Of a stretch of DNA of 64,000 bases, positions 23,920 through 64,000 are shown piece after piece; the stretch's first letter is position 1; the number at the start of each line of letters is the position of its first letter. Both the position numbers and the translations under genes were made by a program. Under the pieces are notes generated by a model. It searched no databases. It was given only the letters and a program-made list of their open reading frames with translations, and had not been told where the DNA came from. The stretch spans positions 219,947 to 283,946 of the forward strand of contig JBGARZ010000009.1 of NCBI GenBank assembly GCA_044229975.1. The letters are read 5' to 3'. The DNA comes from Polyangiales bacterium. Its GTDB lineage: Bacteria > Myxococcota_A > Polyangia > Polyangiales > Ga0077539.

Positions 23920-23947
23920 CACAGGGTGAATGGTCGCATGCGGACGC

Positions 23948-27144: not shown

Positions 27145-27147
27145 GCG

Positions 27148-30100: not shown

Positions 30101-30831
30101 AGCTTTCCGAAGGATGATCTCACATCCATTCGGTCCGCCTCAACCTGCTGAAGCTCGTCCACGTAGCTCTCGAGATCGAGTCCGCCGCTCCGCCCCTTCA
30201 TGACGTCGTCCCACCCGATCACGACGGTGCTCATAAAGCCCCTCCAGGCATCGAAGGCCCCTGATCGAGTGCCCATCGTTTGCCAGGCAGTTCGCTCGAT
30301 GGTCCCCTCACCCGGGAGCCCGCGCTGAATCGCCTCGGCGATCGGGCGAAGACGGGTGGCGATGTGCGCCAGAAGATGCGTCGACTTCGGCAAGGGCTGC
30401 AGATCGAGAATCTCAAGCGGCACCACTTGAGAGCCCGTATAGACCTTCTGGAGGCTCTCCGCGACGAGCTTGCTGTCGAGCATCGGCCCCTGCACCTTAG
30501 GCTGAGGACGGCCTCGAATTGCGTTATTCCAGTGACCGAGAATCGATAACAGTACCGCGGTCTTTCCCGTACCCCGATCGCCGTCGATTAGGGCAACGCG
30601 ATTCGATCGCGCCTGATCAATGCGAGGAAGCACCAATTCGATCACGCAATCGCGCGACTCTCCTTGGATGTTCCCGGCGGTCGTCTCCTTCGCCATCGCG
30701 TCGACTAGATCAAGGATTCGCCGCGTCGCCCACCGCTGGTCCTCAGTCATCTCGTGCCAGTCCAGCGGCCGCGCCTCCGCCCTCGGCCCGCCGCTCACCC
30801 GATTCTCCCCGCCGCCGTTCGCGCTCGTCAT
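27148..30831 (-). CDS. rdrA: Large P-loop NTPase (KAP/AAA-like, 1227 aa), RADAR RdrA-like
   Basis: Walker A ALIDGDRGTGKTAVLLSIL, Walker-B-like FVLPIDDGDM (KAP-type hhhhDDxD). GC about 57%, versus about 70% around it. Immediately precedes and is coupled to the deaminase gene. Confidence 0.5.
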   Translation of the reverse strand: MTSANGGGENRVSGGPRAEARPLDWHEMTEDQRWATRRILDLVDAMAKETTAGNIQGESRDCVIELVLPRIDQARSNRVALIDGDRGTGKTAVLLSILGHWNNAIRGRPQPKVQGPMLDSKLVAESLQKVYTGSQVVPLEILDLQPLPKSTHLLAHIATRLRPIAEAIQRGLPGEGTIERTAWQTMGTRSGAFDAWRGFMSTVVIGWDDVMKGRSGGLDLESYVDELQQVEADRMDVRSSFGKLMDCFAKDFASAMHWRDRAPLFVLPIDDGDMNVMRVPELIDIIRMLWHPRFAIVLAGDSELFELVLRHSVLRDIRLGSAASDSGRTPAFEDGSLEKAAKISRQIFSKSVPESQRFALSEIAVRDRWEVHFDSDVRGAESGRGTSRVSMNSLVCRIDDLTHDGRLPLSGYMKALPELLLALPGNLRQLQEGVLRADSVWFGWSEAIMPTRSAEGTTTARTRRAATLKVGDRNRAAALRDLWRHAIEDDAKSLALRSRSRDVLFDTDDGSIRVRSGEFRLRADWRGIHTSSSGSGTDLTFQTLAHWWIEPPGGSGLSADRPQEAASLSGASTSALVAMMHEDALTDGPFPPFNEFGSVSVFDRYCISSVRFLSRAAESRDTAEGAIWDDVLPISWPVPDWVSPLDAIVVERRWRESCLGSAWGAGHIDHLARTLVGLVLDQAELADPTIRLNESETQAPKWSELAPRVARLGVQRATTPRAKSFAVWARSRVALLGAPECGLPPESAMSWLKLLRKEFGERLWASALRDELVIARNEMIRRGVAHRMVPLRRRPTDEAQIAIYRNAIDEVAATDHPWLKFAGVGVAGRAPTKDVADLIQSLGNLVGSNRLSGFVRRRLSRAPRNAVDVMRRVLEENRFGSVPTARIIAELWHASISATKQQRFGKAVRVVPGDEQRIETNGLRFTRETVEHPTRQVALPGDLVVGTYEIGEIRVTVDDLRLQSPCDAVYSIATDYAASNSVIPTPRRVGFFPWEGVRCMVGDNGPEFYWPALYWFQYGDVSEIEDAWNEALRQIDQRELRSVSDPQWRVDAMLYSCLQNTRRLLGESSVQTAHFTGEPTGQNWQTLLRDLVTWKKSKPEMVDHGDYATFRRELGLFATPELGVSPAVAGHVLTTVLGVGGETVDTLKALRVEWAARFCDSPDAIRPIFTHLRSSFPEHPWYDRVDRIEAPSDEVAAPKVGQRSARASTTRKDSGAKGGARKRPAKP

Positions 30832-30895
30832 CTCGACACCCCTCTCTCGACTTAGCTCGACCCCTCGCCACCCGCCGCCCCCGCCCCTCGCCCGC

Positions 30896-49969: not shown

Positions 49970-50613
49970 GCGAGGAGGCCGTCGCACGTTGCGGCGAGGC
50001 GCTGATCGGTGAGGCGCTGGGGCGGGACTTCGACGGCGAGGTCTTCCTCGCGGGCGGGGCGTTCCGTACCCTGCTGACCGGCGAGGCTCCGCGCGACCTC
50101 GACCTTTGGGCGCCCGACGAGGCCAACCGCACCGCGCTCATCGCGTGGCTCGCTCGGCGCGGCGCGACGATCGAGCGGGACCACCCGCCGTTCCAAACGA
50201 TGTTCCGCTGCGGTCACCATCGGGTCGACGTTCCCTATGCGTTGGGAACCACGCGCCTGGCCGACCGGCTCGCGCGCTTCGACCTGGGGCTCTCGGCGGT
50301 CGGAGTCAGTTGGCGGGACGGGCGCATCGTCGAAGCGGTCATCGACCCGTGCGCAGTGCGCTCTGTCGAGGCGCGGGCGGTGCTCGTACTTCGCCCACTG
50401 CGCAACGCCTCGTACCTGCTCAACACCGTCGAGCGAGCGCGCCGCTACGCGCGTGAACTGGGCTTTGCGCTCCCTGACGCCGAGGAGGAGTTTCTCTGGG
50501 AGACCTACGCGTCGATGCCGCGCGACCGTCGCGAGAAGGTCCTCGCCAACTTCACCTGGGCCGGAGGCGCGGACGGGCAGATTGCCGCCCACGCACGAGA
50601 GCTGGTTGGGTGA
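49897..50613 (+). CDS. Minimal nucleotidyltransferase-like protein (pol-beta/CCA-head fold)
   Basis: FLAGGAFRTLLTGEAPRDLDLWAPD matches the GG..R..L.G....D.D NTase signature. Start uncertain (ATG 49897 or GTG about 49950). Confidence 0.4.
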   Translation: MEDRVRHRGRLARRDTGAAVASALSEEAVARCGEALIGEALGRDFDGEVFLAGGAFRTLLTGEAPRDLDLWAPDEANRTALIAWLARRGATIERDHPPFQTMFRCGHHRVDVPYALGTTRLADRLARFDLGLSAVGVSWRDGRIVEAVIDPCAVRSVEARAVLVLRPLRNASYLLNTVERARRYARELGFALPDAEEEFLWETYASMPRDRREKVLANFTWAGGADGQIAAHARELVG

Positions 50614-50668
50614 GGGCGGTGCGCCGAGGGCGCTTCGATCGCAGGGACGGTGCGCGCGTCGATCCGGC

Positions 50669-52486
50669 TCAAGATGAGAACGGCAGGGCGAGAAACCGCC
50701 CGAGCATCGCGGGCGCATCGAGCGCCAGCGCCCGTTTGATGGCGTCGACTGCTACACGTTCAAGCGGCGCTGCGGTTCGCCCGTGGGCGACGGCATTGCG
50801 AACCTCCACCAGGCTGAAAGGTGCCCCCGACACTGGCGCGATCGACCTCGCCGCGCCCGCGACCGAAGCGAGGGCGTCGAGCGTCGGCCCGTCGACCACT
50901 TTATCGATGCACGCGCGCGCCGCGCCCGGCCTGCTCACCAACTCCATCACCTGCAGCAGCGTACTGAGCGTCGGTTCCTTCGTGGGCTTCAGGAGGAGGG
51001 CCCACTCGCCCTTCGGCTTGAAGGCGTGGACGTTGTCCTCGGCGACCTTGCGCAGGGGCGTGAGGACACGCTCTCGCAGCTCGCGCTCAAGCGTGATCGC
51101 CAGTAGATGAGCGCTGCGCCCGAGATCATCGACGGCGCCGTGATAGGTGATCTCCGAGCGCACGAGGTCGGTTTGTGATTCGGGATGCAAGCTCCCGAAG
51201 GCGTCCCCCAGGATCAGCGCCCAGCGTCGCTGGGACTGCTCGCGGAGCCGGTCGTGCCATCGCCAGGGATCCACCGCGGCCGACGTCGCGAGGGGTCTGA
51301 CATCGGCGCCGAGGATGCCCTCGATCCTGACGAAGAGCGCGTCGAACGTCTCCCGCTCAGCCGCGTCGCGCGGCAGCAAATACGCCTCGGCCTGCAGCTC
51401 GTTCGCCAGGGAACGCAGTTGCTCGACCCACGCCCCTGCCATGCCGCGCACGCGATCGTTCTTGAGGCCCGCGATGACCTCGACCCGTCGCCCCGTGGCC
51501 CGCTCCAGATACCAGAGCGCCTCGCCGTGGAGACCTGCGTCGGCGCAGACCCTCGCGCGCAGCTGATACAGCTTGGGGGTCAGCACCGGATGGTCCAGCG
51601 CCTCAGCCATCGGGCTCACTTCGCCGAGTACGGCGTGCGCCTCCGCGATGCGACCGCGGCCTCGATAGAACTCGGCGCGCCTCATCGCGATGCGCACGCG
51701 GACCTTCCGATCGTCGCCCGCGTCACTCTCGGCCCACGCCGCAGCGAGCGCCTCTTCTGCTTCCTTGGAGTGTCGTTCGATGTCCTTCGGATCTCCGCCC
51801 ACCGTACGTCCGAGGCGCGCGATCGCCAGCTCAGCGCGATGCTTCTGCGCGCTGCATCGACGGCGGCGGTCGTCGAGCACCGCGCCGGCTTTCAGCTCGT
51901 CGTCGAAGCGCCACGCCGCCCCGTCGAGGTCGCCCCGGAGCAGCGCCGCCCGGCCTGCGAGGGCGCGAGCGTTGGCCAGGCGCCGCGGATCCCCGACGTT
52001 CTCCAGCAACTCCTCGTAGCGCGCGTAGCAGTCATCAGCGCTGGCCCTCTGATCGAGCTCATCGAAGAGCGCTCCGAGGTTCCCCAACAGTCGAGCGCGC
52101 ACCCCGACGAGCGCAGGCCCGACCGCATCGCGCAACGCCTCGCGGAACAGGTCGTACGCCTCATCGTGGCGACCGAGGTCCCGGAGCGTCGCGCCGAGGT
52201 GGTTGCTCACCGCGAGCCGTAGCTCCTTGTCGTCGGACTGACGTGCAAGGTCGAGTGCTCGTCGGAAGTAAACCTCCGAGCGGGCCAGGGCAGCCGCTCC
52301 ACCGGCGCGATAGCAGGACAATCCGACGAAGCGCTGGCAGACCGCCTCCGCGCTTGTGTCGCCGCTCTCCTCCGCGAGTGCGAGCGCCCGCTCGTTGCAC
52401 GCGAGCGCCGCCGTCCAGTCCTGGCGCAGATACGCTTCCTTCCCTCGCGCCAGGTGTGCCTCGACCTCGCCCGCCGCGGTCGCCAT
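50669..52486 (-). CDS. TPR-repeat protein (605 aa)
   Basis: Repeated TPR-like helical hairpins in the N-terminal half (AYDLFREAL, CYARYEELL, and similar). Coupled to an upstream small ORF. Confidence 0.55.
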   Translation of the reverse strand: MATAAGEVEAHLARGKEAYLRQDWTAALACNERALALAEESGDTSAEAVCQRFVGLSCYRAGGAAALARSEVYFRRALDLARQSDDKELRLAVSNHLGATLRDLGRHDEAYDLFREALRDAVGPALVGVRARLLGNLGALFDELDQRASADDCYARYEELLENVGDPRRLANARALAGRAALLRGDLDGAAWRFDDELKAGAVLDDRRRRCSAQKHRAELAIARLGRTVGGDPKDIERHSKEAEEALAAAWAESDAGDDRKVRVRIAMRRAEFYRGRGRIAEAHAVLGEVSPMAEALDHPVLTPKLYQLRARVCADAGLHGEALWYLERATGRRVEVIAGLKNDRVRGMAGAWVEQLRSLANELQAEAYLLPRDAAERETFDALFVRIEGILGADVRPLATSAAVDPWRWHDRLREQSQRRWALILGDAFGSLHPESQTDLVRSEITYHGAVDDLGRSAHLLAITLERELRERVLTPLRKVAEDNVHAFKPKGEWALLLKPTKEPTLSTLLQVMELVSRPGAARACIDKVVDGPTLDALASVAGAARSIAPVSGAPFSLVEVRNAVAHGRTAAPLERVAVDAIKRALALDAPAMLGRFLALPFSS

Positions 52487-52487
52487 C

Positions 52488-52794
52488 TCAGCTCCCTGAT
52501 CTCACGACGTCCTCAACGACGGTCGGCATCTGGAGGTCGCGGTGCAGCTCATCGAGGTCGAGCATCCTTCCGCTGGGCCCGTACGCAGCCTGGCCTCGCA
52601 GATCGAGTCCCTGCAGACACGACTCGACCGCGGCACGCCCCTCCTCCGTCGTCATCTGCCGTCGCCGAACGCCGCCCACCGCGGCAAGCCGCCTATCGAG
52701 CGAGTCGCGCAGCGAGGGCGCCGTGAGCTTCGCCGCGATGGCCATCGCCTCCTCTGACGAGCCCACGACCACCGGGTGGTTGGAGATCACCATG
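52488..52794 (-). CDS. Small hypothetical protein (about 102 aa)
   Basis: GC3-biased. ATG start MVISNHPVVVGSSEEAMAIAAKL. Stop 1 nt before the TPR gene ATG. The track ORF extends further upstream in an artefact frame. Confidence 0.35.
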
Positions 52795-53125
52795 GTCTCG
52801 TCGGCTTCTGTCTTCGTCCGGGCGACGTTGTGGGTCGTCCTTGCACGGCGACGTTGTGGGAGCGGGCCGAGCCGCGTCGCGAGCCGCACGCCGACCCATT
52901 CGACCGACGCTCGGAAGTGCGACGACGCGACGCGGAGGGGAATGACCGGAGGAACCTTTGCGTGGCGTCCCATGGACGACGACGCTCGCATGGTCGGCGC
53001 GCACGATTCAATCTCTCGAAGCGGCCCGCGATGCGGCGCGATGTGGCGGCGCTCCCCGCTATGACTCGCGTCGGCCCGACAGCGGCGCCATGGACCTGCG
53101 CCTCGCAGTCCTGCCGCCGCGGCTG

Positions 53126-54334
53126 CTACTGCGGTCGCAGCGTGAAGTTCCACCGCCCGCTACCGCAGGCTCGCGAGCCACCGCCAGCGACGAAGGTCTC
53201 TCGCGTGAACCCCAAGGTGATGTCTTCGCAGATCGCGTCGGAGCCTGCGACGTCGCGGTCTCGGAATGTCGTCGGCACGCCGGCCATCAACATTCCGGCG
53301 GTCACTACGGGCAGCGCGTAGTTCCAGTTCGGCGCGACGGTGTCGCTCGCCTCCGGCGTGCAGTTCTGCCGCCCGTTGAAGGTGACGCACACGAACGGGT
53401 CCGGCGCTCCACCCAACGAGTCCCACGAGGCGCCGGTTCCCGTGCGCTCGGCGACCGTTCCGCTCGTCACGGTGATGACCCACCCCGAGCCCGGCACGAC
53501 GTTGCAGGTTCCAGCACTACCGCATGCGAATCCACGCCCACACTCGGCGCCGCATGTCCCGCCGCAACCATCCGAGCCGCAGGTGCGCCCGGCGCAATTC
53601 GGCGTACAGACGCAACGCCCCGCCGCTGAACACGGCTGCCCCGATGGGCAAGCCCCACAGGTCCCACCGCATCCGTCGGAGCCGCAGGTTCGTCCTGCAC
53701 ACCGCGGGCTGCAGACGCAGCGTCCCAGCATGCAGCTCGACCCCGCAGGACAAGCACCACCGAGCGACCCACAGCTGCGACCTTCGCAGTAGAGGCCCGG
53801 ATCGGCGCCGCACTCCCGGCCCGTGCACTCCGAGCGGCAGACCATCGTGGGCGTCACGCACTGCCCCTGCCCGTTGCAAGACTGCCCGCTCGGACAGCCT
53901 CCACCGTTCGCCCCGCAGACGCGCCCACCGCAGCCAACACCTGGGTCGGCTCCGCATTGGCGACCGCCACAACCCGACTGGCAAGTCAGTGCAGTTCGCA
54001 GACATACGCCGAGCACGCAGTCACCGCCGTCGGAGCAGGTGCCACACGATGTGACCGACCCGTCGGCGCCGCAGGTCCCGCGGCTGCAATCTCCGGCGCC
54101 GCAGCTGCCGCAGCCACTCCATGACCCTGGGAGGCCGGCGCATTCCTGAAGACCCTGTGTGCCGTTGTCGCAGCGACAGAGACGTGCCTGTCCTTCGAAG
54201 CACGGGTCGTCCTGCGACCCGTCGATGCTCGTCGTTCCCGAGTCCACCCTGAGCAGCGGGTCCGGGCGGGGACTGCATGCCAGCGTCCCCACGACCAACA
54301 CCCCCGCGAGCACCCACCCGTTCCGCCCTGCCAT
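53126..54334 (-). CDS. Secreted lipoprotein with Myxococcus-type cysteine-rich repeats
   Basis: Signal peptide plus lipobox MAGRNGWVLAGVLVVGTLAC. About 10 tandem repeats CxxxCGxDxCGGxCGxCxxGxxC. Confidence 0.65.
   Translation of the reverse strand: MAGRNGWVLAGVLVVGTLACSPRPDPLLRVDSGTTSIDGSQDDPCFEGQARLCRCDNGTQGLQECAGLPGSWSGCGSCGAGDCSRGTCGADGSVTSCGTCSDGGDCVLGVCLRTALTCQSGCGGRQCGADPGVGCGGRVCGANGGGCPSGQSCNGQGQCVTPTMVCRSECTGRECGADPGLYCEGRSCGSLGGACPAGSSCMLGRCVCSPRCAGRTCGSDGCGGTCGACPSGQPCSAAGRCVCTPNCAGRTCGSDGCGGTCGAECGRGFACGSAGTCNVVPGSGWVITVTSGTVAERTGTGASWDSLGGAPDPFVCVTFNGRQNCTPEASDTVAPNWNYALPVVTAGMLMAGVPTTFRDRDVAGSDAICEDITLGFTRETFVAGGGSRACGSGRWNFTLRPQ
53390..54160. repeat. Tandem coding repeats (Cys-rich repeat units) inside the lipoprotein gene
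   Basis: Repeated nucleotide units encoding the ...CGSDGCGGTCGAC... modules. Confidence 0.5.
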
Positions 54335-54471
54335 CGCGCGCTCCTGACGTTGCACCGCGAGCAGCGGAAGCATCAGAAACGCCTCATGCGCCGATGTTCA
54401 CGCTGCCCGCGAGGGGCAACCATATGCCAGGGCGTCTGTTACGCAATAACTCTTTGTAGCCACGATCGAGC

Positions 54472-55257
54472 GTGCGGCGGAAAGCCACCTTGCGTGACCC
54501 GCTGTATCGCTCGCCCGAGTACCTGGACCTTATCGGCCGGGTCGCGACCAACGTCCGAAACCTGCGGCAAGGCCACGGGTGGACGCAGGAGGAAGCCGCG
54601 ACCCGCTGCGGCCAGTTGTCGGTCTACGTACTGCGGCAGATCGAGAGCGCGCAGACCAACGTCACGGCCGTGACCCTGGCCCGTCTCAGCGCCGGCTTCG
54701 GAGTCGATGTCGCGACCTTCCTGGTTCCGGCTCCCACTCCCACTCGACGCACACCCGGACGACCAGCGCTGATTCCCCAGGTCGTTGCCCCGGGTCCGCT
54801 CCCACGACGACAAAACGGAAGCGCTGAAGAGAGAACGACCGGAGACACCTCAACGGCCCAGAGCGACCCGACCGCTCGCATTGGGAGCGTCGAGACTCAG
54901 CCAGCCTCCTCGACTGTCCCCGTCCATGTGGGCACTTCCACTCGGCTCGTCGCCACGGACGTCGTCGTACCGACCTATCCCTCAGCGCAGACCCAGACCT
55001 TCACCCTGCCCGAGCTCCGCGACTTCATCGCGACGGTTCTGGCGGCGAACCCCGCGGGACTCACGGCGAGCGAACTCCTCCATGTCGCCCGCTCCGCTGG
55101 TCAGGAACGCCTGGTCGCCAACAGCCTCCACTACGCCCTCCACCACCTCGTGCGCAGCGGCTACGTCCAGCGGACGGGCGCTCGCGGCAGCTACCTGCAC
55201 CGGTGGTTGGGCGGGAAGACTTCTGCCGTCTCGGATCGTCAACCGTTGCAGGACTGA
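54472..55257 (+). CDS. XRE-family HTH transcriptional regulator with a C-terminal winged-helix-like domain
   Basis: HTH_3: LRQGHGWTQEEAATRCGQLSVYVLRQIESAQTNVTAVTLARLSAGFGV. Confidence 0.6.
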   Translation: MRRKATLRDPLYRSPEYLDLIGRVATNVRNLRQGHGWTQEEAATRCGQLSVYVLRQIESAQTNVTAVTLARLSAGFGVDVATFLVPAPTPTRRTPGRPALIPQVVAPGPLPRRQNGSAEERTTGDTSTAQSDPTARIGSVETQPASSTVPVHVGTSTRLVATDVVVPTYPSAQTQTFTLPELRDFIATVLAANPAGLTASELLHVARSAGQERLVANSLHYALHHLVRSGYVQRTGARGSYLHRWLGGKTSAVSDRQPLQD

Positions 55258-55347
55258 CCCGGCCGCCACCACGACAACCGGACACCTCGTCATCACCAGC
55301 AGGGTAGGCGAAGGGGCGGGATGGGTCCGGCCACCTTCGTGCACTCG

Positions 55348-55392
55348 AAGAGTCACTTGCTTTGACTGTCACTTCTGTCACGATTGTCATGT
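55348..55392. promoter_or_regulatory. Operator-like cluster of TGTCAC repeats upstream of the 55384 gene
   Basis: gagtcacttgc tttgactgtcacttctgtcacgattgtcatg: four GTCAC half-sites in 45 bp. Confidence 0.3.
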
Positions 55393-57051
55393 TCACCGAC
55401 GATGCCCTCACGCAAACCATCACCTCCAAAACCTCCGGTATCCAAGAGATCTCCGGGCGTCTCTCCAGGTCATCGGCCTCGGCGGCGACCTCTGCGAGCC
55501 CCACCGGTCGGCCCGTCGAACACCGACGCGCCAACAACGGTCCGCGAGATCGTCGTCGGCTTCGACGAGGAGGCCGTAGCCAACGCCGGCATCGCGGCAC
55601 TCGCAGCGTGCCCCGAGCTGTTCACCCACGCCGGACAGCTCGTCACGCTGGTGCCCCGCTCAATTCCTGGCGCCGCGCTCGACCGCTCTCCGCAGACCCT
55701 GCGTATCGAGCGCCTGCCCACGCCTCGCCTGCGCGAACTCTTGAGTCGCTCAGCGCGTTGGCTGGTCCCCCGGACCGACGACCCCCAGGACCACATCGTC
55801 AGTCACGTTCCGCAGTGGGTCGTGGCCGGCATCGCCGCGCGCCGTGAATGGCCCGGTCTGCGCCCGCTCGCGGGCCTCATCCACACGCCCGTGCTGCGAT
55901 CCGACGGGACGGTTCTGGAGACCCCCGGCTACGATCCGGCGACAGGGCTCTATCTCACCCCCAACGCCGAGTACCCGCGGATCGCTGCCCGGCCGACTCT
56001 CTCCGACGCACGTGCTGCCGCTGATCTCCTCGTCGAGACCGTGACTCACGTCCCCTTTGCGACGGCGGCCGATCGGGCCGCGTGGCTCACGATCGTGCTC
56101 ACGATCTTCGCGCGCTTCGCCGTCGGCGCCGCCTCTCCGCTCTACGTGGTCGAGGACTCGCGCCCCGCGAGTTGGACCAACGAGCTGGTGGACCATACCG
56201 CCTCCATCGTCGGCCTCGGCCCCGTCGCTGCGGTTGAAGCCGACGATTTCATTCCGGCGCCCCGTCGATGGATCGACCTCCTGCTGGCGCAGGGTGAGTC
56301 CCTCGTCGTCTTGCGCAACCCCTCCGTCCAAACGCCGACCGGCTGGCGACGGATTCGCGAGGTACTTGAGCGCTCTCACGCCACCAGTGGATTGACCTGG
56401 TGCACGACGCTTGTTCGGGCGCAGCGCGACCTCGACCTGCTCCGTACGGGGCTGTCCATCCGCTGCGAAAGCAGCGACGGACTCGCACGCATCGGACCGC
56501 AAGAAACACCTCACCGAGGGCTCCGCCAAGGGCCGACGCCGCGGCTCGCGGTCGCGGCGCTAACGATGCTCCGCGCCTATCAGGCCGCCGGAGTCCCTGA
56601 CCAGCATCTCGTACCGTGGTCGGGCTTCGAGCGCTGGTCGCACTTCATTCGCTCGGCAGTGGTCTGGTGCGGCTACCCCGACCCGGTTCTGACGAACGTC
56701 CCCTCGTCGGAGCCGACGACGTCGGCGCTCGCGACGGACGCCGCTGCCGCTGATCTCGTCCTGGGTTGGGCGGACCTGATGGTCGACCACCCTGGGGGGT
56801 GCAGCGCCAGGCAAGCGCTCGATGCGTTGAGTCTCGAACCGACGAAGTACCCGCGTCTCCAAGCAGCGTTGAAAGTCTTCGCCCCGGGCCCCCTAAACGA
56901 TCGCAGTACGGCCGACCGCCTGGGCCGCTGCTTGACCCGGCTCCGCGACGTCGAACACGAGGGATACGCCCTCGTCTTCGTGACCAGCGGAAACCAGGGC
57001 AACCGATGGACGGTGCGACCGACGACGACGGCCCGGGGGCGCGAAAGGTGA
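55384..57051 (+). CDS. Hypothetical protein of the integrative element (555 aa); start uncertain
   Basis: Long GC3-biased ORF with no P-loop. N-terminal ~45 aa are Pro/Arg-rich and may be non-coding. Confidence 0.45.
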   Translation: MSCSPTMPSRKPSPPKPPVSKRSPGVSPGHRPRRRPLRAPPVGPSNTDAPTTVREIVVGFDEEAVANAGIAALAACPELFTHAGQLVTLVPRSIPGAALDRSPQTLRIERLPTPRLRELLSRSARWLVPRTDDPQDHIVSHVPQWVVAGIAARREWPGLRPLAGLIHTPVLRSDGTVLETPGYDPATGLYLTPNAEYPRIAARPTLSDARAAADLLVETVTHVPFATAADRAAWLTIVLTIFARFAVGAASPLYVVEDSRPASWTNELVDHTASIVGLGPVAAVEADDFIPAPRRWIDLLLAQGESLVVLRNPSVQTPTGWRRIREVLERSHATSGLTWCTTLVRAQRDLDLLRTGLSIRCESSDGLARIGPQETPHRGLRQGPTPRLAVAALTMLRAYQAAGVPDQHLVPWSGFERWSHFIRSAVVWCGYPDPVLTNVPSSEPTTSALATDAAAADLVLGWADLMVDHPGGCSARQALDALSLEPTKYPRLQAALKVFAPGPLNDRSTADRLGRCLTRLRDVEHEGYALVFVTSGNQGNRWTVRPTTTARGRER

Positions 57052-57054
57052 ACC

Positions 57055-57165
57055 CCAGATGGAAGTGGAAGTGCTTGAATTGAAGCGCTTCCACGAAGCT
57101 TCCACGACGTGAAACCACTTTCACAGAGCTTCCACGAGTTTCCTGTGGAAGTGACGATCCTCCGC
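57055..57165. repeat. Iteron-like cluster A: GTGGAAG / CTTCCACGA(G) motifs in both orientations
   Basis: ggaagtggaagtg, gcttccacgaagcttccacgacg, ctttcacag, gcttccacgag, tgtggaagtgacg. Confidence 0.55.
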
Positions 57166-57244
57166 CCATGAACCGGTCGTGGACCCACGCGAACGACGCC
57201 GGAGGCTCTCCGCCCCTCGCGTCCGCACTCATCCTACCGGGTCC

Positions 57245-58801
57245 CTACAGCCGAACGACCTTCACCGCGCGCCCGCCCGCCGTGGTGACCGCCTCGACGG
57301 CCTGTCGCTCGGGCAGCGCGGGGACGTTCTTCCGCTGATCGAAGAGCACCAACCACCCCTCCGCCACGCCCAGTCGCGCGAGGTATCCGTCGAGCTGCGT
57401 GAGTCCATCGACCGTCGGGTCCTTCGCCTTGTCGGCGTCGCGCCAGGTCTTGACCTCAATGCCCAGCCGCTCGCCGCGATACGCCACGCAGAGGTCGAGC
57501 CGCTTGGAGCCGATGGCGTACTCGCGCTCAATCCTCCCGCCGCCGTTCACCACCCGGTGCAGGAAGGCCATCATCACCAGCTGCGGTGCCGCCTCGTTGT
57601 ACGGCGAGCTCGCGAGCAACGCCTCGCCGTGCTGCACCCAGAACGCGATGAAGGCCTCCAGCAGCCGGTCGAAGTCCATGCGCCCGTCCGCCGCGAGCCA
57701 CGTCGGCGTCATCACTGGCAGCGACGCGCGCATCGTCACCGTGAGCTGCCGCGCGATGATCTCCCGGTAGATCGGGTTCGCCACCTCGACACCGCCGTCG
57801 GCGCGCTCGCGCACCAGCCCGAGGTCGAGCACGAAGCGAAGGTCGTCGGGCGCGAGCGCCGCCAGCGATTCCCCCTGGATCATCGGCTCGATCACCGCGC
57901 GCACCCGCGGGTCGCGCAGCCGCTCGGCCAGCGAGTCCAGGTGCGTGTCCTGCCGATCGACGAGGACATCGCGGGCGCGGTCGATGTCGGCGACGGTGAT
58001 CGACGTCGCGCGGTCGGGCTTCAGCTCCGTCGTCACGACGTACGCGAGCGCGTTGACCAGCCATGGCTGCCCCTGGGTGTGGGCGAAGGCCTGCCGAAGC
58101 GCGTCGTCCTCGAACCGCTGCCCCGTGTCGGCGGTGTGCTGCCCGTAGAGCTCGCCGACCTCGTCGGCCGTGAACTCGCGCATCGTCAGCGAGCGCACCT
58201 TGATGTTGAACGGCGACGCCGTGTGCAGGTGCTCGCTACCGCCCGAGGCGACCTTGTAGTCGCGCACGTCCCGCAGCCCCACGAGTCCCAGCGCCCACGG
58301 GAAGCCCGCTGGCCTCGAGCGGTGCCCCGCGCGGAGCTGTCGCAGCACCGACAGCAGCACGTTGTCCCGCAGCGCGTCGATCTCGTCGAGGAAGAGCACC
58401 AGCGGCCGCACGCTCGCCTCCGACCACGCCTCGAGCGCCGAGCCGATGCGCGAACCCGCCTGCGTGTCGGGCCACGGCGGCGGCTGCAGGTCGGCCGGGA
58501 GCTGGTGTCGCGCCGACCGACGCCACTCGGCGAGGATCGCGTGCTCGGCGGCGCCCACGTCGTCAGGGAAGGCGGCCCCGGTCTCCATCGACACGAGCAA
58601 CGCTGCGTACCGGCCCTCGGCCGTCAGCGCTGCGCCAAGCGAGAGCAGCGCGGTGGTCTTGCCCACCTGCCGCGGCGCATGCAGGACGAAGTAGCCTTGC
58701 TGGTCGATCAACTCCCTGACCCCGGGAAGCCGTCGATCCGGCGGCAGCATGAAGTGCAGGTCCGGCTTGCACGGCCCGGCGGTGTTGAAGTGGCGGCTCA
58801 T
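57245..58801 (-). CDS. AAA ATPase (Orc1/AAA_14-like) with a C-terminal PD-(D/E)XK-like domain
   Basis: MSRHFNTAGPCKPDLHFMLPP...FVLHAPRQVGKTTAL...LVLFLDEID. C-terminal IGSKRLDLCV...GIEVKTW. Start chosen at 58801. Confidence 0.65.
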   Translation of the reverse strand: MSRHFNTAGPCKPDLHFMLPPDRRLPGVRELIDQQGYFVLHAPRQVGKTTALLSLGAALTAEGRYAALLVSMETGAAFPDDVGAAEHAILAEWRRSARHQLPADLQPPPWPDTQAGSRIGSALEAWSEASVRPLVLFLDEIDALRDNVLLSVLRQLRAGHRSRPAGFPWALGLVGLRDVRDYKVASGGSEHLHTASPFNIKVRSLTMREFTADEVGELYGQHTADTGQRFEDDALRQAFAHTQGQPWLVNALAYVVTTELKPDRATSITVADIDRARDVLVDRQDTHLDSLAERLRDPRVRAVIEPMIQGESLAALAPDDLRFVLDLGLVRERADGGVEVANPIYREIIARQLTVTMRASLPVMTPTWLAADGRMDFDRLLEAFIAFWVQHGEALLASSPYNEAAPQLVMMAFLHRVVNGGGRIEREYAIGSKRLDLCVAYRGERLGIEVKTWRDADKAKDPTVDGLTQLDGYLARLGVAEGWLVLFDQRKNVPALPERQAVEAVTTAGGRAVKVVRL

Positions 58802-58974
58802 CGGCGGCGCAGCATAGCCGACGAGCCCGGGGGCTCGCGCTGGTTCGGCGGTCGATGGCGACGGCAGGTCACGATCGTCGCGACCACCCCGCGAGAGGAT
58901 CGCCTCGGACATGGGCAGCTCGTGGAAGTACCCGCGGGACGACACCATCCGTAAGCTATTGAAACCAGGCAGCT

Positions 58975-59280
58975 TACACTTCTCGTGAAAGTCATCTGTA
59001 CGTACCCGCACTCAGCTTTCACGTCGCGCATGTGAAAGTGGGTGGCCGACTTTCACGAGCGGGTGACCTCGAAGGCGCGGTGGCCCTCGACGGCCAACGC
59101 GGGCTGGTGGTCGAGGACGTGGCCGCGGTCCCGGGAGCGAGATAGCGAACGCGAGCAAACGGCTTGCGGGCAGAGCGATCGCGCACTTGTGCGACGGCCC
59201 GCGTGGCTCCGATCGGGCGAACGTAAGCCCTCGTGAAAGCCCTCGTGAAAGCCCTCGTGAAAGTCGTGGAAGTCGTCCTT
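58975..59280. repeat. Iteron-like cluster B: CTCGTGAAAG / CTTTCACG motifs, including 3 perfect tandem 12-mers (gccctcgtgaaa x3) followed by gtcgtggaagtcgtcc
   Basis: tctcgtgaaagtc, gctttcacgtcg, tgtgaaagtgg, gactttcacgagc. Tandem array at about 59226-59275. Confidence 0.6.
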
Positions 59281-59409
59281 CAAGCGCCACCTCTTCGAGG
59301 GCCCTGCAGCGGACGACACCGGCGCGGCCGGCCGCCCTGATCCCCGCTATCGGCGGCACCGTGCCCATCAAGTTGGCACCCTGGGATTCGTCGGTCAGGA
59401 AGAGGGACC

Positions 59410-60384
59410 ATGCCGAAACCCTCGCGTGACTCTCAACCTCCGACGACCTCAACCTCGGAACCCAGACGGCGCCTCCGCTTGAACGCGAAGTTGTCGTCGA
59501 TGGGTGCCGCCCCAGCGCTGGGTGTGCCTGCGCCTGTCGATGAGGCCTTCTCCGAGACGCTGCAGCTCACCGCGGAGTCGCGCCTCGTGATGAGTACGAC
59601 CGGCAACCTGTCGTCCTGGTGGACGCGGATTGAAAAGCTCCGACCGGACGGCAGCTGGCAGGTGGATCCATCTCCTGGTCTGCGGCTCGAGGACGTTCAT
59701 GTGGATCAGTACCGCGATCTGCTGGAGGCGCGCTTGCTGAGGGCCGGCGCCCTTCCACCCCCGGTCCCGTTGATCGCCCTCGCAGAACGTCACGAGTGGG
59801 ATGCTCGCACTGGTGACCCGGACGCTCTCGTCATCGCGAGGGTGCTGCAGGCGCTGGCCTACGCCCTGCGAGACGATCCGGAGGTGGTCACTGAGTTACT
59901 CAACTTCGCGCACGCCTACATGCTCCAGCGGCGCCCAGGCCACGTTCCACTGGGGTCGGGAGACCCGCGGATCAAGCGTTCGGGGCGACGACCCGTCGCG
60001 GCGCTCCGCCTCCTCAAGTGCGCCCGCAACGCGATGCGTGATCTGCCTCCACTTCGGCGAGAAGGTCCAACCGAGGAGGAGAACGATGAGTACCTCGACG
60101 AAGCCGAGCACCTCGCCTGGGAGGTCGAACATCTGTACCCGGCCGTCTACCCGAAGAAGTTCTCCGAGCAGCAGTCGGCCATCACGGCGCTCAGCGAGGA
60201 GCTGATGGCCATGCGGAAACGTGAGCCGGATCGCATCGCCAAGGCAGCGCTGCGAGCGTGCGGGATGTCCTCGAGGCAGGCGTCCGACACGTTCGCCTTC
60301 CTCGACAAGAAGTCGAAGCGCAAGGCGGAGACAGAGCCCGGAGCATCGGCTGGTCGCGTTTCGCCCTCGGAGAATTCTCGGTGA
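59410..60384 (+). CDS. Hypothetical protein of the integrative element (324 aa)
   Basis: GC3-biased ORF divergent from the ATPase gene. No recognisable domain. Confidence 0.45.
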   Translation: MPKPSRDSQPPTTSTSEPRRRLRLNAKLSSMGAAPALGVPAPVDEAFSETLQLTAESRLVMSTTGNLSSWWTRIEKLRPDGSWQVDPSPGLRLEDVHVDQYRDLLEARLLRAGALPPPVPLIALAERHEWDARTGDPDALVIARVLQALAYALRDDPEVVTELLNFAHAYMLQRRPGHVPLGSGDPRIKRSGRRPVAALRLLKCARNAMRDLPPLRREGPTEEENDEYLDEAEHLAWEVEHLYPAVYPKKFSEQQSAITALSEELMAMRKREPDRIAKAALRACGMSSRQASDTFAFLDKKSKRKAETEPGASAGRVSPSENSR

Positions 60385-60434
60385 GAGTCCGATGACCGTG
60401 GTGGAGGCGTAACGCGTCTGCTCCGCTGCGGGTC

Positions 60435-60890
60435 GTGAGATCTCGGTCAGCGATCACTGCACGACCCACCGGCCCCGTCGCCGAGTCGTCCCTCCACGCA
60501 TCCCAAGGACACACTGTTGGCGATGCCGCCCGTGAGGCCGTCGAACTCCCGCGCCACCTCACGGCGCGCGAGATCTTCGTGCAGTTGCCTGGCCGAAGTC
60601 TCCGCTGGATCTACGATCACATGCACAAGGCCGGGGGCGCACGCGGACTGGTCCGCGCTGACCTCTGGGCCCGACACCTGGAGCAACTCACCTCATGGCA
60701 ACCCTCCGACGCAAAGGCCGCTACTGGTACCTCCGCGACCGCTCCGGCGGCACCGACACCGAGGTCGGGACCGGCTGTACCGACCGCAAAGCCGCCGAAG
60801 CGTGGCAACGCCAGTGGGAGCGTGACCGCGCCGATCCCGAAGGTGCCGCCCGTCGCACGGCGGCGGCGACCACGCTCCAACGCGCCGTAG
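60435..60890 (+). CDS. Excisionase/AlpA-like small HTH protein (Xis candidate); 3' end uncertain
   Basis: LTAREIFVQLPGRSLRWIYDHMHKAGGARGL resembles AlpA/Xis HTH_17. Lies directly upstream of the integrase; the tail overlaps the integrase frame. Confidence 0.35.
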   Translation: MRSRSAITARPTGPVAESSLHASQGHTVGDAAREAVELPRHLTAREIFVQLPGRSLRWIYDHMHKAGGARGLVRADLWARHLEQLTSWQPSDAKAATGTSATAPAAPTPRSGPAVPTAKPPKRGNASGSVTAPIPKVPPVARRRRPRSNAP

Positions 60891-61894
60891 ACCTCGAGCA
60901 CGACCGGCACCTCGCCGAGGAGAGCGCGGGGAAGCTCGCGAGCAACACGGTCGCCTTCTACAAGAGCAAGCTTGGCGTGGTGCTCGACGTGATCGGCGGC
61001 GAGACCCCGATCGTCGAGGTGAGCTCCGCGACCGTGGACCAGTACATCCAAACCCGCCGCGACGACGGCGCCTCGGACCACACCATCGCCAAGGAGCTAC
61101 ACGCGCTGAAGGGTGTCCTCGCGACAGCCCGACGCGCGAAGCTCTGGTACGGCCGCGTCGATGAGGTGATGCCCGAGCGCTTCTCGCCCAACTATCGACC
61201 GCGGACGCGCTTCCTGACGGTCGCTGAGGTCCTCAAGGTGATCGGCGAGCTCACGCACGACCGGGCCGCGTGGGTTGCTCTCGCCGTCGGGGCAGGTGCC
61301 GAGCTCTCGGCGCTGCAACGCGCCGAGCGCGGCGACCTCGACCTCAAGCGCGGCCTCGTTCGCGTGCGCGGCACCAAGAACGAGCGGCGCGACCGTGAGG
61401 TGCCCATCGTCCTGCCCGAGTGCGAGCAGCTCGTCGAGCTTGCGTTCAAGTGGGGACAGGGAACCGACGGCAAGCTCCTGCGCCCTTGGGGCAAGAACTG
61501 GCGCGACCTCGACGACGTCGCGACCGACCTCGGCATCGAGCCCTTCTCGCTGCACTCGCTGCGGCACACCTTCGCTACGTGGCACCTCGCCGCGGGCATC
61601 CCCTGGGACGAAGTCGCCCGCGCGATGGGGCACGCGGACACGACGATGCTCCACCGAATCTACGGGCACATCAGCGGGGACGAGCTGCGCAACCGCCTGC
61701 TCCGCGCGCTCAACGAGAGCAAACCGACTTCCCCGGATGTTCCCCGCGACGGGGCGCAAGAGGCGCATTCGGCGCGCCCGGCGCGCGACCCCAGAAATGA
61801 CGAAAGCCCTTCTCTCGAAGGGCTTTCTGGGTACCGGCGGTCGGACTTGAACCAACGACCTGAGGATTATGATTCCCCTGCTCTAACCAGCTGA
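60695..61894 (+). CDS. int: Tyrosine recombinase / phage-type integrase whose ORF reads into the adjacent tRNA gene
   Basis: Catalytic residues in context: R (VRVRGTKNERRDREV), HSLRHTFATW, GHADTTMLHRIYGH (R..H..R..Y). The ORF's last ~20 codons overlap tRNA-CAT. Confidence 0.8.
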   Translation: MATLRRKGRYWYLRDRSGGTDTEVGTGCTDRKAAEAWQRQWERDRADPEGAARRTAAATTLQRAVDLEHDRHLAEESAGKLASNTVAFYKSKLGVVLDVIGGETPIVEVSSATVDQYIQTRRDDGASDHTIAKELHALKGVLATARRAKLWYGRVDEVMPERFSPNYRPRTRFLTVAEVLKVIGELTHDRAAWVALAVGAGAELSALQRAERGDLDLKRGLVRVRGTKNERRDREVPIVLPECEQLVELAFKWGQGTDGKLLRPWGKNWRDLDDVATDLGIEPFSLHSLRHTFATWHLAAGIPWDEVARAMGHADTTMLHRIYGHISGDELRNRLLRALNESKPTSPDVPRDGAQEAHSARPARDPRNDESPSLEGLSGYRRSDLNQRPEDYDSPALTS

Positions 61895-61905
61895 GCTACA
61901 CCGGC
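61832..61905 (-). tRNA. tRNA-Met(CAT): tRNA with anticodon CAT (elongator Met or Ile2/lysidine type)
   Basis: Minus strand: GCCGGTG-TA-GCTC-AGCTGGTTA-GAGC-A-GGGGA-ATCATAA-TCCTC-AGGTC-GTTGG-TTCAAGT-CCGAC-CGCCGGT-A, then CC. Clean cloverleaf, U33, A37. T-arm resembles tRNA-Ile2. Confidence 0.8.
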
Positions 61906-62036
61906 GTGGGGCGCGGACTCTACTGATCGGCGCTTCGCTGTCAACCCTTTCCTCCCGCCGTCCTCCGCTTCCGTCGGTCCGCTTCGCACCTTCCGGCGCC
62001 GCGGGCGATGGGGATATAACCGCGCCCAACCCACCG

Positions 62037-62696
62037 ATGAGCGACATCTCCCCCAACGAACGCGATCGCCTGCTCGAACACTTCGGCCGGCGCTACGCCA
62101 ACGGCGAGGTGATCTTCCGCGAGGGCGACGCCGCGCGCGAGGTGTTCATGCTACAGGAGGGCCGCGTGCGCGTCGCCAAGCGCGTGCGCAACGTCGAGCG
62201 CTCGATGCACATCCTCAAGCCCGGCGACCTCTTCGGCGAGGTGGCCCTCGTGCCCGGATCGCTCCGCAACGGCAGCGCCTTCGCCCTCTCCGACGTCGTC
62301 GTCCTCGCCCTCGACCCCGACACCTTCACGCAGCTCCTCTCCGGCTCGCCCGCCGTCGCCACGCGCCTCGTGCAGCAGCTCGTTCGGCGCCTGCGCGACT
62401 CCGAAGACCAGCTCGAAAACGTCCTCCTCCGCGACCCCACCTCCAAGGTCGTCAACACGCTCCTCAAGCTCGCCGCCGAGACCGGCCGCACCTCCGGCGG
62501 CGCGCAGATCGCCGTCTCGCCCCTCGAGCTCTCCGCCCGCGCGTCCCTCGACGTCGACGCCGTGAAGCGCGCCGTGCTCCAGCTCCGCGAGCTGCAGTAC
62601 ATCCGCATCGCCGAGGAGAAGGTCGCCATCGACGACATCGACGCCCTCCGCCGCCTCTACACGCTCCTTGGCATGCAGGAGCAGGTGCGCGGCTGA
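62037..62696 (+). CDS. Crp/Fnr-family transcriptional regulator (cNMP-binding domain plus C-terminal HTH)
   Basis: GEVIFREGD...FMLQEGRVRV...GDLFGEVAL and a C-terminal HTH (TSGGAQIAVSPLELSARASL). Confidence 0.65.
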   Translation: MSDISPNERDRLLEHFGRRYANGEVIFREGDAAREVFMLQEGRVRVAKRVRNVERSMHILKPGDLFGEVALVPGSLRNGSAFALSDVVVLALDPDTFTQLLSGSPAVATRLVQQLVRRLRDSEDQLENVLLRDPTSKVVNTLLKLAAETGRTSGGAQIAVSPLELSARASLDVDAVKRAVLQLRELQYIRIAEEKVAIDDIDALRRLYTLLGMQEQVRG

Positions 62697-62790
62697 CCCA
62701 CCGCGGCCCAGGGCAGTCAAGTTCCTGGTTGACCGACCGCGGACCCTTCGGTTAGATGCGGCGCTCTACGGCTCGCGGAAACGTGACGAG

Positions 62791-63615
62791 ATGCCCCTCC
62801 CCGACATCAGTCGCCCCCGCGGCTTCGCTTGCTTGATCGTCGGTTGGCTTGCGGTCGCAGGGTGGTCCTGCACCGGCGTCAGTGAAGAAGCACGACTGCA
62901 ATCACAGGCGGACTTGAACCTGGGACGAGCCATGTTTGCGGAGGAGCACAACGCCGAAGGGGCCCTCGTCCCCTTGGAGCGCGCCATCCGCCTCGACCCC
63001 GAAAACGCCGACGCCAACGCCACCCTCGGCCTGGTGCTGGGGCAGCTCGGGTTCTTCGACCGCGCCGAGGCCCCGCTCCGCCGCGCGGTCGAGCTCTTCG
63101 CCGTGCAGTCCGTCAACAACGAGAGCCTGCGCGCCTCGCTCGCCGACGCCCGCAACTCCCTCGGCGTCGTGCTGATGAACCTCAACCGCTACGACGACGC
63201 GCTCCCGCTGCTTCGCCTGGCCACCGAGGAGATCACCTACGGCAGCCAGCACCTCGCCCTCGGCAACCTCGGCCGCGTGTACATCCAACTGCGCCGCTAT
63301 CCCGAGGCCATCGAGGTGCTCCAGCGCGCCATCCGCCGCCAGCCCAACTTCTGCGTCGGCAACGCCCGCCTCGGCGAAGCCTTCGCCCGCTCGGGTGACC
63401 CCACCCACGCCGTCGAAGCCCTCGACCGCGCCATCGGCACCCAGGTCGCAGGGTGCGATCAGTTTCAAGAAGCCTTCCTCTGGCGCGCCCGCGCGCGCAT
63501 CGAGCTTCATCAGCCAGACCAGGCGCGGGAAGACATCCAGCGCTGCATCGCCCTCGGCGCGCGAACCCCCGAAGGCCAGGAGTGCACGACGCTCGGGAGG
63601 TCCGTCGCCCCATGA
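62791..63615 (+). CDS. TPR-repeat (lipo)protein
   Basis: N-terminal hydrophobic signal MPLPDISRPRGFACLIVGWLAVAGWSC, then TPR motifs (ALGNLGRVYIQLRRYPEAIEVLQRAI and similar). Confidence 0.5.
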   Translation: MPLPDISRPRGFACLIVGWLAVAGWSCTGVSEEARLQSQADLNLGRAMFAEEHNAEGALVPLERAIRLDPENADANATLGLVLGQLGFFDRAEAPLRRAVELFAVQSVNNESLRASLADARNSLGVVLMNLNRYDDALPLLRLATEEITYGSQHLALGNLGRVYIQLRRYPEAIEVLQRAIRRQPNFCVGNARLGEAFARSGDPTHAVEALDRAIGTQVAGCDQFQEAFLWRARARIELHQPDQAREDIQRCIALGARTPEGQECTTLGRSVAP

Positions 63616-63673
63616 GCGCGCGTCACCACAACCATCCAACAGCCCAGCGGGCTGCTGCCCGCTCCGAGGTGTA

Positions 63674-64000
63674 GATGGAACCCATCGGGACATTCCTCCG
63701 ACGCGAGCGCGAAGACCGCGGCCTCTCCCTCGACGAGATCGCCGACGTCACCCGCATCCCGTCGACGTCCCTGAGCCTCCTCGAAGAGGGCCGCTTCGAA
63801 GCCCTCCCCGGCGACCCCTTCGTCCGCGGCTTCCTCCGCGCCTACGCCCGCGCCCTCGGCGTGAAGACCGACGACGTCCTCGCCCGCTACTCCATCGAGG
63901 TGCGCCTCCGCGACGTGCTCCCGCTCCCGCCGCGCATGCTCGATGACGGCGACGCCCGCGGCCGCCGCTTCGGCCTCGCCATCGCCCTCGTCGTGTTCGC
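63674..64000 (+). CDS. RodZ-like HTH (XRE) cytoskeleton protein; 3' end outside the window
   Basis: MEPIGTFLRREREDRGLSLDEIADVTRIPSTSLSLLEEGRFEALPGDPFVRGFLRAYARALGV is the conserved RodZ N-terminus. No stop before the window end. Confidence 0.55.

Follow-up and report, generated by a model that had tools for sequence, protein, structure and literature searches.

The 64-kb window analysed here, a stretch of 64,000 nucleotides of contig JBGARZ010000009.1 from a Polyangiales bacterium, contains a putative integrative element beside a tRNA-Met gene. All positions are those of this window unless another locus (L001, L004 and so on) is named. Gene calls and gene order were obtained from GC3 profiling (GC content at third codon positions) together with family searches (Pfam, NCBIfam, PHROGs, PADLOC). 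The locus comprises genes for an XRE-family regulator, a 549-aa Rep-like protein (rep), an AAA+ ATPase fused to a nuclease domain, a 324-aa protein (p324) and a tyrosine integrase (int), and its features are listed in Table 1. The preliminary description of this DNA had pointed out two clusters of iteron-like repeats flanking the ATPase gene, in an element with an integrase and an XRE regulator. Reading of the sequence confirmed the repeats at this place, and both genes are indeed present, int abutting the tRNA-Met gene.

Table 1. Repeat clusters and genes of the element, in positions of the 64-kb window
Feature	Position	Strand	Remarks
XRE-family regulator	54472-55257	+	Pfam HTH_3, E 3.8e-8; has a C-terminal region
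Region upstream of rep	55340-55395		GTCACTT / GTCAC repeats overlapping the extended site form GTCACTTCCAC
Rep-like protein gene, 549 aa	55402-57051	+	PHROG matches
Cluster A, candidate origin	57059-57151		8 GTGRAAG-type sites, the first 8 nt past the rep stop
AAA+ / winged-helix / PD-(D/E)XK nuclease gene, 518 aa	57245-58801	-	Pfam, Foldseek, motif
Cluster B1	58922-59056		5 sites, + + - + -
Cluster B2	59225-59272		perfect 3x tandem of AAGCCCTCGTGA, then TCGTGGAAG; 4 direct sites at 59233-59272
324-aa protein (p324)	59410-60384	+	no family match; between cluster B and int
Tyrosine integrase (int)	60695-61894	+	Pfam Phage_integrase; phrog_1, E 1e-42
tRNA-Met, presumed integration target	61830-61905	-	ARAGORN; Rfam tRNA, 61.5 bits

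The sequence was read over 56700-59700 and motifs were counted on both strands of the whole window, to which the comparison was confined. Alignment of all 17 sites gave the consensus cTCGTGRAAGy. The sites are split over two non-coding clusters, A and B, which lie 1.77 kb apart and have this one consensus in common, GTGGAAG being preferred in cluster A and GTGAAAG in cluster B. The core GTGRAAG occurs 35 times in the window, 15 of these occurrences falling inside 57065-59272. Longer forms exceed by far the numbers expected from dinucleotide shuffling: TCGTGRAAG has 13 matches against 0.96 expected, 10 of them within the two clusters, and CTCGTGRAA has 9 against 0.91, neither count being reached in any shuffle. 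The two clusters noted earlier are thereby borne out. The five sites previously counted in cluster A have to be raised to eight, two of which carry one mismatch, and the cluster upstream of the ATPase gene begins at 58922 and not at 58975. Its perfect threefold tandem was recovered by Tandem Repeats Finder (59225-59263, period 12, 3.2 copies, 100% match).

Two simple identities of the motif were considered. A genome-wide dispersed repeat, of the kind of repetitive extragenic palindromes or miniature inverted-repeat transposable elements, finds no support in the window, which outside the locus holds only isolated 7-mer matches and three 9-mer matches. DnaA boxes, with the consensus TTATCCACA, were rejected; in a by-eye comparison, the site read in reverse (nCTTCCACGA) has just TCCAC in common with it, and the common A variant of the site (CTTTCAC) breaks even TCCAC.

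Cluster A is placed between the stop codons of rep and of the oppositely oriented ATPase gene. Its sites are oriented + + - - + - - +. An AT-richer patch at 57057-57086, among the lowest 1% of 24-nt windows in GC content, has opposite sites on each side, + at 57059 and 57065 and - at 57088 and 57099; with about 17-30 nt the patch is short, and its A+T content reaches only about 53-58%. The cluster is kept in L001, a syntenic orthologous locus with a Rep of 68% identity and the same GTGRAAG unit, where motif positions have changed less often than spacers (7/55 against 15/47, p = 0.03). The R position switches between A and G in this comparison and still remains within the consensus.

Cluster B occupies a gap of 608 bp that separates the start of the ATPase gene from the divergently oriented p324 open reading frame (ORF). 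A small ORF in this gap was ruled out, as the substitutions relative to L001 show no codon periodicity. The sites of B1 surround the most AT-rich patch of the locus (58941-59004; minimum GC 38%, lowest 0.3% of windows), and the patches of both clusters rank within the lowest 1% of the window. B1 also contains an inverted pair, CTTTCAC-N9-GTGAAAG, at 59016-59038. In L001 (10603-10625) this pair reads CTTTCAG-N9-CTGAAAG, a symmetric change by which the palindrome is kept. The direct sites of B2 lie 140-180 nt upstream of p324. Since its 12-bp tandem is single-copy in L001, the expansion of B2 is recent and specific to the lineage of the window. Most cluster B sites carry one mismatch in L001.

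Further motif-related repeats precede rep (Table 1), and in L001 two perfect iteron-like copies, CTTTCAC and CTTCCAC, stand directly before the rep ATG (6950-6990). Such repeats could conceivably be autoregulatory sites. We also considered whether the ATPase gene is a mobile cassette with terminal inverted repeats. This was rejected: the 34-nt inverted pair around it (57129-57162 / 58895-58928) is only 74% complementary, which equals many chance pairs, and homology to ATPase loci elsewhere ends at the gene borders (57245-58827).

Next, we turned to the 549-aa protein encoded directly upstream of cluster A. It has no Pfam match and no significant match in a PDB sequence search (best E 0.13 and 0.3), and it matches phrog_29234 (E 9e-30) and phrog_19930, a 'DNA polymerase/primase' family. 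Its fold is compatible with D5, PriRep1 and SaPI5 PriRep (the matches to SaPI5 PriRep and PriRep1 being weak), and its C-terminus is predicted to be winged-helix-like. A database search returned 28 relatives. The close clade consists of 17 full-length Myxococcota proteins of 53-70% identity, two of them named 'putative DNA primase/helicase' by the Joint Genome Institute. Distant relatives, 780-960 aa long and bearing an N-terminal Prim-Pol or NrS-1 HBD domain, keep GxGKS/T, hhhhDN and TGNN at the expected alignment columns. The Rep of the window has EDSRPASWT, VVLRN and TTLVR there instead, and the close clade as a whole shows EDSRPASWT-like, RN/TN and non-TGNN residues at these helicase motif columns. 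By regular-expression search, Walker A is absent from 17 of 17 aligned sequences (16 of the close clade and P0019, of 34% identity). Relatives with 24-52% identity are found on 56 viral contigs of 4-113 kb (mostly 12-62 kb), and others on small plasmids, annotated as bifunctional DNA primase/polymerase. The ratio of nonsynonymous to synonymous substitution rates (dN/dS) against the L001 orthologue is 0.29, which points to purifying selection. To judge from these alignments, the protein is a derived phage or plasmid primase-helicase initiator that has kept its scaffold and its predicted C-terminal DNA-binding domain and lost catalysis.

We then compared the neighbourhoods of Rep homologues, counting as lineages those that are full-length and have sequence beyond the rep stop codon. 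In all six such lineages (five at 53-70% identity, one at 30%), an array of short repeats lies 3´ of the rep stop. The unit varies by lineage: GTGRAAG, CGTGAAGC, CTGGCGA or GCGGGGGAT. An AT-rich patch is present in some of the arrays. Besides L001, the GTGRAAG unit occurs in L013 (57% identity), as five sites with a T-rich patch after the rep stop. In L008 and L017 (57%), three direct GGTCGTGAAGC and one CTCGTGAAGC are followed by a 30-bp AT-rich stretch and two more copies, one of them inverted. Eight loci of 55-57% identity (L004, L009-L012, L018-L020) have 3-4 CGCCAG sites and then at least five CTGGCGA sites. In the most distant lineage (L022, 6471-6589; 30%), three copies of GCGGGGGAT and three inverted copies enclose about 70 AT-rich nt. 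The repeat unit tracks the three Rep clades. One metagenome-assembled genome (MAG) contains three rep elements with three different units (L008, L010, L013), and in another MAG three rep elements have one common unit (L009, L011, L012).

Scored crudely by exact 7-mers, the 300-nt stretch behind rep ranks among the top 3% of windows at 8 of 11 loci. Among distant viral homologues, the repeat score directly 3´ of the gene falls in the top 10% of its own locus in 14 of 49 cases, where about 5 are expected. ATCCCCCG / AGGGGGAT repeats, related to the L022 unit, were noticed after several viral homologues (L066, L051, L057). In L013 (5821-7743) the rep ORF lacks a stop codon behind the conserved SGNQGNRW at its end and continues through the array that belongs to it. 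The ATPase gene is found in none of the other array-bearing rep lineages. An XRE gene stands directly upstream of rep in the window, L001, L006 and L009, and no homologue of the window's XRE was found in the examined flanks of L004, L010-L013 and L018-L020, despite their arrays 3´ of rep.

We therefore favour, with a probability of about 0.6, the interpretation that the repeats are iterons, that is, binding sites for the replication-initiator-type protein of the element, the 549-aa Rep. The earlier idea that they are iterons belonging to the replication module of an integrative element is thus retained with a different partner, the upstream Rep in place of the ATPase. This reading can be set against several known systems.

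The closest are the staphylococcal pathogenicity islands (SaPI), in which the origin (ori) lies directly downstream of rep and contains 6-12 penta- or hexanucleotide iterons in opposite directions around an AT-rich centre (PMC9371898). Their iterons are read by the C-terminal winged-helix domain of a Rep with a superfamily 3 (SF3) helicase, binding and melting are ATP-independent, and the Rep-ori specificity varies between related islands (PMC9371898). Similarly to SaPI and other phage-inducible chromosomal islands, the element of the window is an integrative island with int and an XRE-type regulator. Its Rep has a helicase-derived core of the D5/P4/SaPI-Rep type and a predicted C-terminal winged-helix domain, and a short-iteron array follows rep directly, here as in the other lineages examined. 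At least two iterons stand on either side of cluster A's AT-rich centre, in opposite directions, and unit specificity varies between related elements. Unlike the SaPI protein, the Rep of the window has no Walker A, Walker B or motif C, and no primase, separate or fused, was found. The second cluster 1.8 kb off, beyond a cargo gene, and the myxobacterial host are further differences.

Satellite phage P4 has two separated clusters (ori and crr) of one octamer repeat in both orientations, some kilobases apart and bound by the C-terminal domain of the primase-helicase; they flank the rep gene itself, whereas the clusters of the window flank an unrelated ATPase-nuclease gene. Clusters A and B resemble this arrangement in being made of one short repeat in both orientations and separated, within an integrative element beside a tRNA gene. 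The domain order of the P4 alpha protein is primase, SF3 helicase, winged helix (PMC2777425). It differs in being an active DnaG-type primase and helicase, the Rep of the window retaining only the helicase-derived core and the C-terminal domain. Plasmid pRN1 cannot replicate without the sequence that lies downstream of its prim-pol/SF3 gene (PMC4234260; PMC2777425). Distant Rep homologues, some on small plasmids, share the ORF904 type of pRN1 in having Prim-Pol or NrS-1 HBD N-termini. The Rep of the window differs from ORF904 in lacking both a prim-pol domain and an active helicase, and the pRN1 origin is a stem-loop region with no described iteron array.

With classical iteron plasmids the likeness is one of concept, an initiator reading repeated sites. 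Initiators of this type (RepA, pi, TrfA; Rep_3) bind repeats beside an AT-rich unwinding element, recruit the host helicase and autoregulate via inverted copies. Their iterons, unlike the 7-11 nt units of mixed orientation found here, are direct repeats of 17-22 bp in helical phase, and their Rep, a double winged-helix protein, has no relation to SF3 helicases; a Pfam search of the window gave no Rep_3 match.

Because of the SaPI-type layout, the need for the downstream region in pRN1 and the domain order of P4 alpha, we take cluster A to be the origin, bound by the 549-aa protein, and infer that this origin may still fire. Rep would recognize the iterons through its predicted C-terminal winged-helix domain, and cluster A would represent the origin typical of the family, directly 3´ of rep, with opposite sites around an AT-richer patch. 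Since Rep has neither ATP-site motifs nor a primase, its role would be limited to marking the origin and perhaps melting it, and the host or a helper phage would have to supply unwinding and priming. Cluster B might be a second cis-acting region comparable to crr of P4. Equally, cointegration at ori might have left behind another, related element's origin here, or the sites might be operators through which Rep acts on the divergent promoters of the ATPase gene and p324-int. The ATPase gene between the clusters would be cargo in a slot just past the origin.

Several observations weigh against this interpretation. Walker A, Walker B and motif C are gone from the close clade as a whole. Searches of Rep and neighbouring ORFs (Pfam, NCBIfam, PHROGs) detected no primase or prim-pol domain, and no helicase or primase was recognized among the neighbouring genes (the same searches and PADLOC). 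Self-replication of the SaPI kind can as such be excluded on these grounds. Cluster A is precisely absent from L006 (4850-4965) and L014 (6205-6312) in comparison with 57052-57175 of the window, the gap being bordered by a TGAACC direct repeat that contains the rep stop codon. Motif positions of cluster B have changed in 6 of 49 cases against L001 (hand count), which equals the background of about 12% (surroundings 10-20%), and the cluster is eroded in L001. SGNQGNRW, the wing motif, does not vary between clades that have different repeat units, and ranking by exact 7-mers gives weak results for L001, L008 and L013. Arrays and rep are co-inherited, and the match between unit and clade could reflect plain linkage. 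Finally, neither attL nor any repeat of the tRNA region of at least 15 nt was found in the 64-kb window, and the island may be a fossil.

The int ORF extends into the opposite-strand tRNA-Met gene, past a GC-rich hairpin at 61801-61828, and host-like Crp and TPR genes follow beyond the tRNA. The left border of the island is undefined because no att repeat was found in the window. In L001 and L026, int adjoins the same tRNA. Only five relatives of p324 were found; family searches (Pfam, NCBIfam, PHROGs, PADLOC) gave no match for it, and the sole long contig among its relatives starts just right of the expected B2 position. Synonymous divergence (dS) from L001, compared over 50500-64000, differs widely among the genes: ATPase 0.18, Crp 0.29, p324 0.34, Int 0.41, TPR gene 0.59, Rep 0.86 and XRE 1.09. 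GC3 of the ATPase gene is 0.91, against 0.75-0.77 in its neighbours (0.77 in rep and the XRE gene). By both measures the ATPase gene is host-like and the locus is mosaic, the Rep-XRE part seeming to have another history than the ATPase-p324-int part. An Rfam scan detected no RNA family besides the tRNA, promoter and terminator scans found nothing, PADLOC did not match the ATPase or its neighbours, and no packaging genes were recognized near the locus. Farther away in the window, GC falls to 0.57-0.64 at 22000-24000 and 27000-33000, against 0.69 overall; these stretches may be other acquired regions. A 75-bp unit in two tandem copies (83% match) lies in lower-GC sequence at 23117-23265.

A second instance of a bracketed ATPase gene was found at the same tRNA-Met/Crp locus of a close relative (L026/L027), with 94% identity in the ATPase, 49% in the integrase and 34% in p324, the latter in the same position. 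In L026 a module is present as two direct copies (100-260; 2590-2760; 83% identity over about 280 bp), and the ATPase gene lies between them. These modules have another unit, GGTCGCCAYC, and an AT-rich patch, and module 1 is directly 3´ of a C-terminal remnant of Rep. In L001, as in L026, the module nearer to rep is intact and the one nearer to p324 is eroded. Such brackets would result if two related elements underwent a single crossover at their origins and deletions followed. No simple inversion or insertion that would link the gene orders of the window and L026 fits the observed order, and a 145-aa ORF beside module 2 of L026, considered as a Rep remnant, has no detectable relation to Rep.

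In the main rival of the Rep-iteron reading, the clusters would be former iteron origins, now inert, of a single element or two related ones that underwent cointegration and decay at tRNA-Met, and the flanking of the ATPase gene a by-product of recombination at ori. The missing attL, the helicase-dead Rep, the deletion of cluster A in L006 and L014, truncation of rep in L014 and L026, the background rate of change in cluster B and the mosaic dS values (ATPase 0.18; Rep and XRE 0.86-1.09) are all in line with decay, and the direct-repeat modules of L026 are the exact outcome expected from a single crossover between two ori copies. On the other hand, Rep evolves under purifying selection, motif positions in cluster A are kept better than spacers, the family is multi-copy with intact arrays in two MAGs, and B2 has recently expanded to three perfect copies. 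We consider such complete decay unlikely.

Rather less probable still is that the sites are operators and not an origin, being bound by a transcription factor (the XRE/winged-helix regulator of Table 1) or by a Rep acting solely as repressor, and controlling the ATPase gene and p324-int. For cluster B such a role is possible: it occupies a divergent promoter region, the 7-N9-7 inverted pair of B1 with its symmetrically changed halves fits a dimeric binder, motif-like sites stand just upstream of rep in L001, and an XRE gene precedes rep in four of the loci. Cluster A fits poorly with XRE-type operators. It lies between two gene 3´ ends with little to control there, arrays follow rep in the eight loci whose examined flanks yielded no XRE homologue, and the number of sites, their mixed orientation and the AT patches are better explained by origins.

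The ATPase itself had been proposed as an Orc1-like initiator surrounded by its own iterons. At the level of the AAA+/winged-helix fold the name is fair. The protein matches Pfam AAA_35, AAA_16 and AAA_22 and, weakly, a nuclease domain. A PDB sequence search gave no significant match; Foldseek comparison of the AlphaFold2 model (predicted local distance difference test score, pLDDT, 81) retrieved PABY2304 (1.6e-8), SSO1545 (1.1e-7), ORC/Cdc6 (1.1e-7) and Cdc6/Orc1 on DNA (2.4e-7), RuvB and clamp loaders matching about as well as Cdc6/Orc1. As in Orc1/Cdc6, the AAA+ module is followed by a winged-helix domain. The protein is, however, an ATPase-nuclease fusion, the C-terminal domain having the invariant residues D436, E449 and K451 of a PD-(D/E)XK motif. 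Its family has at least 8000 matches, with 60-80% identity in Sorangium, Myxococcus and Archangium and members also in Acidobacteria, and members stand alone in unrelated neighbourhoods.

It is very improbable that this protein is an initiator or partition protein of Orc1/Cdc6 type that binds the repeats flanking its gene, in spite of the fold shared with Cdc6/Orc1 on origin DNA (2qby, 2v1u) and with archaeal AAA+/winged-helix ATPases, and of the second case, in L026 and L027, where a 94%-identical gene stands between two repeat modules. Unlike Orc1/Cdc6 genes with their origin recognition boxes, the ATPase gene is not consistently linked to cognate repeats. Three loci elsewhere (L023-L025, 75-90% identity) have no GTGRAAG repeats at either end, and in L026 the unit is a different one; it would be unexpected for ATPases of 94% identity to read two unrelated sites. 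The intact nuclease motif is no feature of an initiator, and the arrays go together with the upstream rep, with or without an ATPase gene. The claim that the ATPase is the initiator is not supported.

Equally remote is a role of the inverted copies as RNA or DNA hairpins that terminate the convergent rep and ATPase transcripts or stabilize their 3´ ends: the + strand RNA of 57050-57175 does fold at -42.5 kcal/mol (z = -4.7 against shuffles), but the - strand reaches only z = -1.9, no terminator-like sites are predicted, stem differences to L001 are not compensatory (hand comparison), sister lineages have direct-repeat runs unable to form hairpins, and B2 is solely direct.

Under the Rep-iteron reading, the ATPase gene is probably cargo and not an initiator gene, and perhaps of a defence type. 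In L004 (9209-15620), as in L009, L011 and L012, a 1771-aa DruE-like helicase and a DpdE/DrmD-like SNF2 helicase are encoded directly downstream of the CTGGCGA array. The position past the origin thus looks like a cargo slot, filled with Druantia- or Dpd-like helicases in sister elements. We also considered that the bracketing is functional, the helicase-dead Rep and two iteron modules forming a unit around the AAA+/PD-(D/E)XK nuclease gene. Rep could loop the clusters together and so silence the nuclease gene, or it could allow the replication machinery of a helper phage or the host to fire at the flanking origins upon infection; in both cases, a defence nuclease would have its dose or expression coupled to replication of the invader. 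This proposal accommodates the 94%-identical gene found between unrelated iteron modules in two elements (window; L026/L027), the defence helicases in the post-origin slot of sister elements and the purifying selection on Rep after loss of all catalytic motifs. We nevertheless regard it as improbable.

Taken at sequence level, the locus would represent a rep-ori of the SaPI/P4 kind, and what appears to be new is that the initiator is catalytically dead, that another cluster lies past a cargo nuclease and that the host is a myxobacterium. To our knowledge, myxobacterial integrative islands are almost undescribed, and self-replicating elements are scarce as tools for these bacteria. The locus and its relatives define a family of tRNA-linked islands with a SaPI/P4-like rep-ori module, at least four iteron specificities and defence-type cargo just past the origin. 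Should Rep no longer license the origin, the locus is an island in ordinary decay. Should it still do so in its helicase-dead state, it would be a natural case of an SF3 initiator pared down to marking the origin and dependent on enzymes of the host or a helper. Rep-ori pairs of this family could then be converted into compatible vectors and be used as markers for satellite-like elements in Myxococcota.

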